DNA of 33,017 nucleotides. Origin: Candidatus Thorarchaeota archaeon (GTDB taxonomy: Archaea; Asgardarchaeota; Thorarchaeia; Thorarchaeales; Thorarchaeaceae). How positions within the stretch are numbered: the first letter of the stretch is position 1; every line of letters starts with the position of its first letter. Both the position numbers and the translations under genes were made by a program. The stretch spans positions 1-33,017 of the forward strand of contig RDNZ01000029.1 of NCBI GenBank assembly GCA_011364905.1, in the 5' to 3' direction. Of the stretch, positions 3,275 through 10,852 are shown piece by piece. The notes below the pieces were generated by a model. The model ran no database searches, was not told where the DNA came from, and was given only the letters and a program-made list of their open reading frames with translations.

Positions 3275-3748
3275 TTATTGTTTAGAAAGCTGATAAACAA
3301 AGATTACTTGATTGTTTGTCCAGCTGAGGTAGTGTGGCACATAACCTGCCCTCTCGAAACCACAAGATAGATAGAACTGCTGCGAGTATTCCATGAAGTC
3401 CCCAGTATCAACGCGAATCACATCAACAAGAGTGTGTTTCTTCCCAATTTCCTTCACTTCTTCTATCATCCTACTACCAACACCTTCTCGAAGGTGGTCA
3501 TGATGTGTGATGATGGAATTAATGACAAGGGCCCTCCAGTCAAACTGAATAGCTGTATACCCGAGCACCTCTTTATTCTCAGAGGCAAAAGCCATCAGGA
3601 TTTTACCGAGTTGGGGAAAAGCAGTATAAACATCAATTCTCAGCATCTCGTGGTCGAGAAATGGAGTTCCAAAGTTCTCAGCTTCAAGAACCATCTCTTT
3701 TATGACTTCTCTGTCACCGATCTGAAACTCGCGCATTTGGATTGTCAT
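3275..3748 (-). CDS. GNAT family N-acetyltransferase
   Basis: HLREGVGSRMI and QFYLSCGF motifs. Start placed at ATG 3748 (MTIQMREF); the ORF track extends to 3796. Confidence 0.8.
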   Translation of the reverse strand: MTIQMREFQIGDREVIKEMVLEAENFGTPFLDHEMLRIDVYTAFPQLGKILMAFASENKEVLGYTAIQFDWRALVINSIITHHDHLREGVGSRMIEEVKEIGKKHTLVDVIRVDTGDFMEYSQQFYLSCGFERAGYVPHYLSWTNNQVIFVYQLSKQ

Positions 3749-3966
3749 ACCAAATGATGAACCCGGTGACAACTTAAGAAGTTCGAGCCGTGCCATCCGT
3801 ACTGTTTCTTAGTATCGCCTGTCAAGAGGCCTATGATATTCGGCAGGACTGGATACCAATCCAGTTTCTACTTCTACCGTTAGTGGCGCTCTCAATTCTG
3901 GCAATCGTGTATTTGAGTCAAGCAGGCAACCAATCAGTTTTTTTCATCTGAGAACAAGTTGTAATA

Positions 3967-4136
3967 GGACCCACCCAGAGTGCGACGAGGCAAGAATCGC
4001 ACAACATAAGCGGGTGGGTCCGAGGGAGGGAGTTGTCTTCTGAAGCATAATGGGACTCGGCGCGGCATAGTGATCCAAGACGTGCATTATCATTCAGGCG
4101 AGTCCCTGATGGTTGTGTGAATCTTGGATTCATACA
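3967..4136. ncRNA. Putative structured non-coding RNA (hairpin plus pseudoknot-capable domain), family unknown
   Basis: Perfect 10-bp stem 3967-3976/4012-4021 with inner 6-bp stem 3980-3985/3997-4002. 8-bp complement GGGACTCG 4052-4059/CGAGTCCC 4099-4106 crosses the 8-bp ATCCAAGA 4073-4080/TCTTGGAT 4122-4129. Lies in a ~550 bp gap lacking a convincing ORF. Confidence 0.45.
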
Positions 4137-4243
4137 TGGATCAGTTGCAGTCAATATAAGACCGCCATGTCAACAATCGCCGTTTTCATATCATGAGGCT
4201 GCAAAAAATCAATCAATCAGGAAAAACTGAAGGACCATGGCAA

Positions 4244-4252
4244 TGTATAAAG
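4244..4252 (+). promoter_or_regulatory. Candidate TATA box for the oxidoreductase gene
   Basis: TGTATAAAG ~45 bp upstream of the proposed start, leaving room for a short leader with SD GGAGTGG (4286-4292). Confidence 0.35.
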
Positions 4253-4295
4253 GTCAAGAGGAGAGGGGGCACCTTGATTCCCACAGGAGTGGTTC

Positions 4296-5300
4296 ATAAC
4301 GTCATCTCAAAAGATTGTGATTGTTGGAACAGGCAATATGGGTCGTATTCATGCCCGAATTCTAAGCGATATGGGAGTCTTGGTGGGAGTGGCAGACAAG
4401 GACAATGCTACGGCGCGAAAGGTCGCGAAGGAACACAATACGACCGCATTTAGTGACTTTGAGAGTATGTTGAAAAAGACAAAACCAGACGGTGTCATCA
4501 TTGCTACACCAACTGCAACCCATGCCGAGATTGCACACTCCATCGCTACAGGCTTCGATGGAATCAAGGGAATTCTAATAGAAAAGCCACTAGCAAGCAC
4601 CCTAGAAGACGGTAAAAAGGTCGCAGAAATAGTAAGGGAACGAGGGATTGTCACCCTTATTTCTCATTCAGAGATCTATAATCCCATTGTAGGGAGAGCC
4701 TTGTCATTGATTGCCAGCGATGCCATTGGAACTCCCAGAACAATCATTCACGACAGACGAGGGTTTGTATCACCCGCGAGAATCCCGGCTTTGGGTGATG
4801 TCTTTGAGGACATTGGCGTTCACGACTTCGACATAATGGCGAGAATCAGCAACGGTCCTGCAAAGCTCTATGCCCAGAGTAACACAGCCAGTGGAATCCA
4901 TAACAGTGGGACGGTAATGGTGAAGTTTGCATCTGGGACTGAACATTTCTTCCATCTTTCTAGGCAATATGCAGGACGTCGTCGATACATGGATGTTTCA
5001 GGAACAAAGGGCTCTCTGGTTCTTGATTTGTTTGGACAGATAATCAAGGTACAGCACTTGGACCAAGCCCCTATTGCCAAGGGCGACACCATTCAGCTTC
5101 CGGAGAGAGGTGCTACGATAAAGGTCTATGGAGAACCTGTACGAGAGGTACTGAATGACTTTCTGAAGTGCATAAAGACAGGGGGGACTCCGAAGGTGAA
5201 CATTGATGATGCTCTTTGCGCATTGGAAGTTGTTGAGGCAGCGAGACAGAGTGCGGAGTCTGGCAAAATCATTGACATCAATATCAAGCCTAGGTCCTAA
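4296..5300 (+). CDS. Gfo/Idh/MocA family NAD(P)-dependent oxidoreductase
   Basis: Rossmann KIVIVGTGNMG, IATPT..H, EKPLA and DIGVHDFD motifs. The GTG at 4317 lies inside the first beta strand, so the start is proposed at in-frame ATA 4296 after SD GGAGTGG. Confidence 0.9.
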   Translation: MTSSQKIVIVGTGNMGRIHARILSDMGVLVGVADKDNATARKVAKEHNTTAFSDFESMLKKTKPDGVIIATPTATHAEIAHSIATGFDGIKGILIEKPLASTLEDGKKVAEIVRERGIVTLISHSEIYNPIVGRALSLIASDAIGTPRTIIHDRRGFVSPARIPALGDVFEDIGVHDFDIMARISNGPAKLYAQSNTASGIHNSGTVMVKFASGTEHFFHLSRQYAGRRRYMDVSGTKGSLVLDLFGQIIKVQHLDQAPIAKGDTIQLPERGATIKVYGEPVREVLNDFLKCIKTGGTPKVNIDDALCALEVVEAARQSAESGKIIDINIKPRS

Positions 5301-10776: not shown

Positions 10777-10852
10777 AGCCCCGTGGTGTAGTGGTCCAGC
10801 ATTGAGGGTTTTGGCCTCTCAGACCTAGGTTCAAATCCTGGCGGGGCTACCA
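10777..10852 (+). tRNA. tRNA-Gln (anticodon TTG), intronless, CCA encoded
   Basis: Acceptor AGCCCCG/CGGGGCT (A1-U72, typical of archaeal tRNA-Gln), anticodon arm GAGGG-TTTTGGC-CTCTC, T arm CTAGG-TTCAAAT-CCTGG, then ACCA. Confidence 0.95.

Follow-up and report, generated by a model that had tools for sequence, protein, structure and literature searches.

What does the 520-nt gap between two protein genes in this Thorarchaeota DNA encode? Asgard archaea are the closest prokaryotic relatives of eukaryotes and, to our knowledge, almost nothing is known about their regulatory RNAs. A first-pass annotation of the window (the whole stretch of 33,017 nt analysed here) had flagged positions 4052–4136, within this gap, as a pseudoknot or two-state RNA element in an orphan intergenic region. 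It had proposed an undescribed structured non-coding RNA, a riboswitch-like switch or an atypical H/ACA guide. Our analysis indicates that the flagged stretch is most likely the front half (5' domain) of an undescribed small non-coding RNA (sRNA) gene, which lies on the strand opposite to the one folded earlier. Coordinates of all features are collected in Table 1.

Locus, distribution and candidate identities

Across about 16 same-genus genomes, positions 3958–4316 of the window share 75–82% identity. The DNA to the left of 3967 could not be aligned in same-genus genomes, which gives the element a sharp left border at hairpin P1. A search with the P1 pattern returned exactly one copy in 25 of the 27 own-genus genomes, as well as copies in two further genera; the element is single-copy in the genome of the window, which is 81% complete and in which the window forms contig 26. 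The oxidoreductase gene on the right side of the gap is a single-copy orthologue in 81 of the 86 genomes of the family. When the region upstream of this gene was read in all other genera, the same element, with diverged sequence, was found in most of them, and longer-loop variants were seen by eye in further genera. R1, a covariance model of the element's 3' part, gave one match per genome in 56 of the 86 family genomes. Those matches whose position was compared with the coordinates of the oxidoreductase gene all adjoined it and lay on the strand opposite to it. A further two weak matches (E 0.002–0.005) are probably noise. Altogether, at least 9 of the 16 genera in one Thorarchaeota family carry the element, at one copy per genome.

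Table 1. Coordinates of the element and its surroundings, in positions of the window.
Feature	Position	Strand	Remarks
GNAT acetyltransferase gene	3275–3796	minus	left flank of the gap
3' tail	3940–3966	minus	one or two U-tracts in most relatives; degenerate in this genome
Conserved non-coding element, whole	about 3955–4176		contains every complementarity listed in the first-pass annotation
Predicted small RNA	3955..4131	minus	both ends predicted, from sharp conservation borders, an initiator-like motif, and P1 with the tail
Terminal hairpin P1	3967–4021	minus	best-supported part; outside the range flagged earlier
P1 outer stem	3967–3976 with 4012–4021	minus	10 bp
P1 inner stem	3980–3985 with 3997–4002	minus	
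P1 loop motif UUGCCUC	complement of 3987–3993	minus	
C/U-rich tract	4022–4045	minus	directly 5' of P1; CCUCC twice; predicted single-stranded
5' domain of the sRNA	4052–4131	minus	holds H2' and the candidate crossing helix H3'
H2'	4099–4106 with 4052–4059	minus	8 bp; weak comparative support
H3'	4122–4129 with 4073–4080	minus	8 bp; candidate crossing helix
TATA-like box T1	4154–4160	minus	reads CUUAUAU; putative sRNA promoter
CAUGR box	4165–4169	minus	5–9 nt upstream of T1; 79–89% position-specific conservation across genera
TATA box T2 of the Gfo/Idh/MocA gene	4246–4252	plus	between element and gene; outside the sRNA
Shine-Dalgarno-like AGGAGTG of the oxidoreductase gene	4286–4292	plus	
Gfo/Idh/MocA oxidoreductase gene	4317–5300	plus	Pfam and NCBIfam matches

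The description of the region as orphan did not hold. Wherever it was found, the element lay directly upstream of, and divergent from, the one single-copy Gfo/Idh/MocA oxidoreductase gene, and its other (upstream) neighbour differed in identity and orientation among relatives. These comparisons establish, at the level of sequence, the family, its single copy and its fixed linkage to this gene. In three genera, g5, g10 and g36 (our labels), the oxidoreductase gene is present with no recognisable element upstream of it, and no element was recognised upstream of the gene in g35. A pattern scan of public genome contigs was swamped by chance matches in high-GC bacteria, and a scan of metagenome contigs contributed only about 6 sequences.

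The NCBIfam models nearest to the oxidoreductase were archaeal UDP-GlcNAc 3-dehydrogenase and inositol 2-dehydrogenase, both under the cut-off. The gene has its own TATA box (T2), which is kept in nearly all genera at 40–60 nt ahead of the gene. Its reading frame opens after TGA 4275–4277, and the sole common start codon in the window is GTG 4317. This GTG is missing in relatives, where the oxidoreductase must start ~20 nt further upstream (at TTG or ATG), so the start codon shifts within the genus, behind the conserved AGGAGTG.

Further observations were made at these loci. In many genera, the region upstream of the oxidoreductase gene contains a tRNA-Leu(GAG) gene in the same orientation (loci L346, L352, L359–L363, L366, L372, L373 and L351/L361). 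It stands in place of the element in g5, g10 and g36, and in one g3 subgroup it replaces P1 and the remainder of the element stays. Several of these upstream tRNA-Leu copies were undetected by ARAGORN, which suggests introns. A strongly conserved CCGAAAAG-RTAAAAAG box about 45–55 nt before tRNA-Leu (L359, L360, L362, L363, L366 and L373) looks like a promoter with BRE and TATA box, and could be used as a reference promoter for the family. Genome G010 carries two diverged copies of the element together with the oxidoreductase gene, on contigs C127 and C209 (L024 and L010); with 7% reported contamination, the two copies are most simply explained by two strains binned together. At L357 (g6), the P1 3' arm and the C/U-rich tract are kept and the plus-sense 5' arm is swapped for an unrelated small hairpin; this may be a decayed copy.

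The element matched no known RNA family on either strand. With Rfam 15 at the gathering threshold, the only match in the window was a tRNA at 10777. At E ≤ 10, positions 3700–4400 gave a sole match, to mir-50 (E 6.6), which is noise, and four divergent homologues had no match at the element. The literature searched contained no account of it either. Without a match in Rfam or in that literature, and with strong conservation and clear covariation in one helix (P1), the element is most probably a previously undescribed small RNA gene; here the earlier suggestion of an undescribed structured non-coding RNA was supported.

Several other identities were considered and rejected. SRP RNA and RNase P RNA lie on contigs other than that of the element in 26 and 24 of 27 relatives, respectively; neither was found in the genome of the window (G000), where 16S rRNA is present on contig 24, and their absence there is attributable to the 81% completeness of that genome. 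A repeat or mobile element was ruled out by the single copy per genome. As for a small protein gene, length differences are not multiples of three (hairpin length differs by 1–3 nt among close relatives), runs of 24–33 nt are invariant at all codon positions, and the local ORFs had no Pfam matches. C/D box and H/ACA readings were dropped because the motifs, seen by eye, are unconserved. The ACA triplet noted earlier after the hairpin is indeed present at 4134–4136, but it is not kept among 17 close relatives and precedes the predicted RNA start. When the alignments were read by eye, they showed neither a conserved tandem G-A motif nor a conserved symmetric pocket. With ACA unconserved and no conserved pocket or K-turn organisation seen by eye, the proposal of an atypical H/ACA guide was abandoned.

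Hairpin P1 and the strand of the RNA

To analyse P1, 59 sequences representing 9 genera were aligned. In its outer stem, 99.5% of the cells were paired, and compensatory changes on both sides had occurred in six of the ten pairs. This level of pairing was reached by none of 500 shuffles, and slid controls did not come close either. The inner stems vary in sequence by group and retain pairing, and the spacing between the arms ranges from 18 to more than 70 nt among homologues.

The non-Watson-Crick pairs of P1 discriminate between the two strands. Over 21 distinct arm combinations, the minus-strand reading gave 13 G-U pairs and 2 mismatches, whereas the plus-strand reading gave 1 G-U pair and 14 mismatches; thus, for 13 of the 15 non-Watson-Crick pairs, the minus strand has G-U where the plus strand has an A-C mismatch. 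Several positions exhibit every step from C-G through U-G to U-A when the minus strand is read. The closing pair of H2' and the inner stems of P1 also tend to favour this strand. Selection on a minus-strand RNA helix would be expected to produce such a pattern. From the G-U versus A-C asymmetry, we infer that P1 is a hairpin of a minus-strand RNA and that the minus strand is the probable strand of the RNA as a whole, contrary to the plus-strand reading with G-U pairs in the first-pass annotation. Our own first working model, a plus-strand RNA from P1 to a T-run, was dropped after divergent genera gave only A-C mismatches in P1 when the plus strand was read. More generally, this asymmetry in a single helix offers a means of assigning an RNA gene to its strand from sequence alone.

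The minus-strand RNA from 4131 to 3955 had a folding energy of −55.9 kcal/mol (z = −3.7), with P1 as the main contributor. The variable 5' domain gave a less uniform picture. Plus-strand G-U pairs appeared in a hairpin in subgroup g1C, in a helix in g4 and in the g3 version of the 4052/4099 helix; these amount to few cells in short helices, collected by a permissive search and reading by eye. An automatic helix census of this domain for a strand signal was noisy and mixed.

On the plus strand, positions 4012–4030 contain four G3 tracts with short spacers, a canonical G-quadruplex motif. This motif shares bases with the 3' arm of P1 and is conserved in the genus of the window and in g7; the strand supported by P1 is the C-rich one.

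The 5' domain and the predicted promoter and ends

The complementarities reported earlier in the flagged stretch could all be located. GGGACTCG at 4052–4059 and its exact complement at 4099–4106 are present, as is the core ATCCAAGA (4073–4080) with TCTTGGAT (4122–4129), and the competing pairings, including TGATCCA with TGGATCA, lie where they had been placed. The two 8-bp helices interleave, so the crossing was confirmed. The long plus-strand hairpin 4071–4132, however, was missing from the minimum free energy (MFE) structure of the plus strand of 4045–4150, which consists of the 4052/4099 helix and a local hairpin at 4107–4143. Compared with shuffled sequences, 4045–4150 folded with z = −2.6 on the plus strand (3 of 200 shuffles were as good) but with z = −1.4 on the minus strand; as modelled, the fold of this region alone appears only weakly unusual.

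On the minus-strand RNA, the four segments follow in the order 4129–4122 (at the very 5' end), 4106–4099, 4080–4073 and 4059–4052, which still corresponds to the topology of an H-type pseudoknot. H2' is 96.7% paired in 19 close relatives, and its closing pair is G-U (10), G-C (6) or A-U (1) on the minus strand. H3' is invariant, with no covariation among the 19 close relatives, and it is broken in two of them (L016 and L229), in which two central pairs are mismatched and uncompensated. One neighbouring subgroup has a loose equivalent of H3', whereas the other subgroups lack one. As both helices are almost invariant, the comparative data say little about the pseudoknot, and the same invariant segments of the 5' domain have other, mutually exclusive pairings. 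The domain is conserved within subgroups only, and other hairpins replace it elsewhere; the part between P1 and T1 ranges from 44 to about 196 nt, and its sequence differs between genera. Of the conservation and covariation expected in relatives, the element as a whole is conserved and P1 covaries, but H3' shows no covariation. The pseudoknot or two-state structure proposed in the first-pass annotation retains its crossing helices and a weakly supported H2', but its H3' lacks covariation and is disrupted in two relatives. A pseudoknot or switch is possible, and to judge from the alignments would be at most lineage-specific.

We next consider the predicted promoter. When homologues were anchored on T1 (n = 64), flanks that are otherwise unalignable across genera showed position-specific conservation. 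The CUUAWAU core of T1 was present in all 64, with C as the first base in 93%; on the minus strand, we take this sequence to fit the archaeal TATA consensus. On the same strand, an A at +13 from T1 was found in 90% of the 64 homologues, and UG(A) about 22–25 nt downstream of T1 in 75–78%. The spacing and motif of UG(A) fit an initiator, which predicts an RNA start near 4131/4130, a position argued from the consensus. By the consensus of the 64 sequences, the element has its own putative promoter at a proper distance from its conserved 5' end, as is looked for in a stand-alone sRNA gene. The CAUGR box may be a factor-binding or BRE-side element.

At the other end, U-runs of at least 4 nt within 25 nt after P1 were found in 23 of 31 same-genus sequences and in several from g7 and g8. 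No U-tracts follow P1 in g2, g3 and g4, and in the window the tail after P1 has a longest U-run of 2 and no U-tract. The RNA end is accordingly placed, on sequence features, at P1 plus, in many relatives, the U-tracts. The predicted RNA would be about 175 nt long here and 88–229 nt among relatives.

T1 is nearly symmetric, and in plus orientation it also resembles the oxidoreductase gene's own TATA box; the two TATA-like boxes, T1 and T2, are about 95–110 bp apart. About 25 nt to the right of T1, a G/C box followed by a T4–5 run (about 4176–4190, plus strand) is conserved in homologues. It could be bound by a factor or act as a terminator on the plus strand, and the minus-strand model offers no explanation for it.

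Proposed mode of action and relation to known systems

Three features are common to all genera with the element: a C/U-rich tract 5' of P1, P1 itself and a GCCUCCC-like motif in the P1 loop. The exception is one genus in which this motif occurs in the tract only. The tract at 4022–4045 is invariant over 19 genomes, and nearly all genera have C/U-rich equivalents. The predicted mean unpaired probability was 0.80 for the tract and 0.85 for the P1 loop motif, compared with 0.53 for the 5' domain. The 16S rRNA of the genome of the window has GAUCACCUCCU as its 3' end; the core of this anti-Shine-Dalgarno sequence, CCUCC, is found again in the tract and loop motifs.

Taken together, we assign a probability of about one half to a minus-strand sRNA gene (about 4131 to about 3955), divergent from the Gfo/Idh/MocA gene, whose product acts by base pairing. 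According to this model, RNA polymerase would start at the initiator ~23 nt downstream of T1 on the minus strand. The resulting RNA would comprise a lineage-variable 5' domain, the exposed C/U-rich tract, the very stable P1 and a tail, which many relatives have in U-rich form. The exposed CCUCC motifs of tract and P1 loop would then pair in trans with purine-rich, ribosome-binding-site-like sequences of mRNAs, a mode of action suggested by analogy with the C-rich-region sRNAs of staphylococci and Bacillus (PMC9410917). Synthesis of the sRNA might be coupled to that of the divergent oxidoreductase gene through a shared control region of about 95–110 bp. A duplex-energy scan of 2688 crude translation-start regions detected pairing no better than with shuffled seeds, and genome-wide counts of complementary purine motifs revealed nothing striking. 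A more far-reaching version, to which we give little credence, is that the sRNA is a general competitor for ribosome-binding sites, displaying the anti-Shine-Dalgarno core twice (in loop and linker) and tuning Shine-Dalgarno-dependent translation, with coupling to the dehydrogenase and with the 5' domain gating the seed in some lineages.

The C/U-rich motifs and P1 might instead bind a protein, with the minus-strand RNA serving as a sponge or RNP scaffold and not targeting mRNAs. By reasoning alone, such a role would suit the repetition of GCCUCCC-like motifs in the loop and the single-stranded tract, the runs of 24–33 nt that are invariant beyond the needs of pairing, and the start-region scan in which no specific mRNA target stood out. 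However, the gene neighbourhood points to no partner protein, the neighbours being a sugar- or inositol-type dehydrogenase and variable genes, and we consider this role unlikely. A plus-strand cis-regulatory leader of the Gfo/Idh/MocA gene (riboswitch-like or terminator/antiterminator) is rather improbable. It would start just left of or inside P1, and would terminate at the T-run ~25 nt right of 4160 or extend into the gene. The element is locked 5' of this one gene in every genome that carries it while the other neighbour varies, the G/C box and T5 right of T1 are conserved, some 5'-domain helices have plus-strand G-U pairs, and the competing pairings seen earlier would suit a switch. A riboswitch of the downstream gene nevertheless needs the plus strand, and the wobble pairs of P1 favour the minus strand by 13 to 1. 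Moreover, a separate, well-conserved TATA box (4246–4252) and a Shine-Dalgarno-like sequence intervene between element and gene, and no conserved TATA box is properly spaced to the left of P1, where candidate boxes would start transcription inside the hairpin. Between genera, the middle part from P1 to T1 changes in both length and sequence, as an aptamer would not, which led us to reject a conserved ligand-binding core; and g5, g10 and g36 retain the gene without the element. On the grounds of the wobble pairs and of the gene's own signals downstream of the element, the riboswitch-like identity proposed earlier was set aside, as was that of a cis leader.

The mixed strand signals (minus for P1, plus for some middle helices) and the near symmetry of T1 could also mean that both strands are used, a minus-strand RNA that ends in P1 overlapping a plus-strand RNA of the middle part as a cis-antisense pair. 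As the plus-strand signals consist of few cells in short helices from a permissive search, and no plus-strand promoter was found at a fitting distance, we regard this arrangement as very unlikely. Nevertheless, the plus-strand wobble in the 5' domain, the likeness of T1 in plus orientation to a TATA box, and the G/C box with its T-run leave the plus-strand leader and the use of both strands with about a quarter of the probability between them. The location in a divergent promoter region and the 10-bp inverted repeat formed by P1 would fit a protein-bound inverted repeat or regulatory region that acts as DNA, with no functional RNA. Yet the arm spacing varies from 18 to more than 70 nt, the inner stems alter their sequence and retain pairing, covariation of the arms follows a wobble pattern specific to one strand, and about 100–230 nt are conserved, more than operator sites need, which makes a purely DNA-level element highly improbable.

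For the preferred reading, a minus-strand sRNA, the single copy, the presence in many genera, the covarying hairpin and the exposed anti-Shine-Dalgarno-like motifs make the element a concrete candidate: it could be the first family of trans-acting sRNAs found to be conserved in Asgard archaea. Its ~60 natural sequence variants can be used for covariation analysis and target prediction.

Among known systems, the element resembles riboswitches and cis leaders in its fixed place 5' of one gene and in its competing pairings, but its supported helix is on the opposite strand, the gene's promoter lies in between, the supposed aptamer part varies between genera, and there is no Rfam match. With archaeal H/ACA guide sRNAs it shares a hairpin with an internal loop and, on the plus strand, a nearby ACA. 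Unlike in H/ACA guides, this ACA is unconserved and falls beyond the predicted RNA, no conserved pocket or K-turn was seen by eye, and P1 is followed by a purine-rich tract (plus strand) or an A/U-rich tail (minus strand) instead of ACA.

The gene arrangement has bacterial parallels. In micF-ompC, oxyS-oxyR and gcvB-gcvA, an sRNA gene is divergent from its neighbour and shares a control region with it. As in these pairs, the sRNA gene described here is fixed head-to-head with one protein gene, but its neighbour is an oxidoreductase and not a regulator, and the shared regulation is putative.

In function, the element may resemble Firmicutes sRNAs with C-rich regions, such as IsrR, and RsaE/RoxS and FsrA as cited in PMC9410917; staphylococcal sRNAs of this kind pair through their C-rich regions with Shine-Dalgarno sequences (PMC9410917). 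In contrast to those RNAs, to which it is related by neither sequence nor family, the element is archaeal (Asgard), and its motifs are C/U-rich (CCUCC, GCCUCCC) and not C-runs; in addition, the genome of the window is not AT-rich, so G-rich sites are less discriminating. Like the IsrR-type sRNAs, however, the predicted RNA is small and stand-alone, with its own (here putative) promoter, stem-loops and a terminal hairpin, and it carries C-rich motifs in a loop and beside a stem that are complementary to the G-rich Shine-Dalgarno core.
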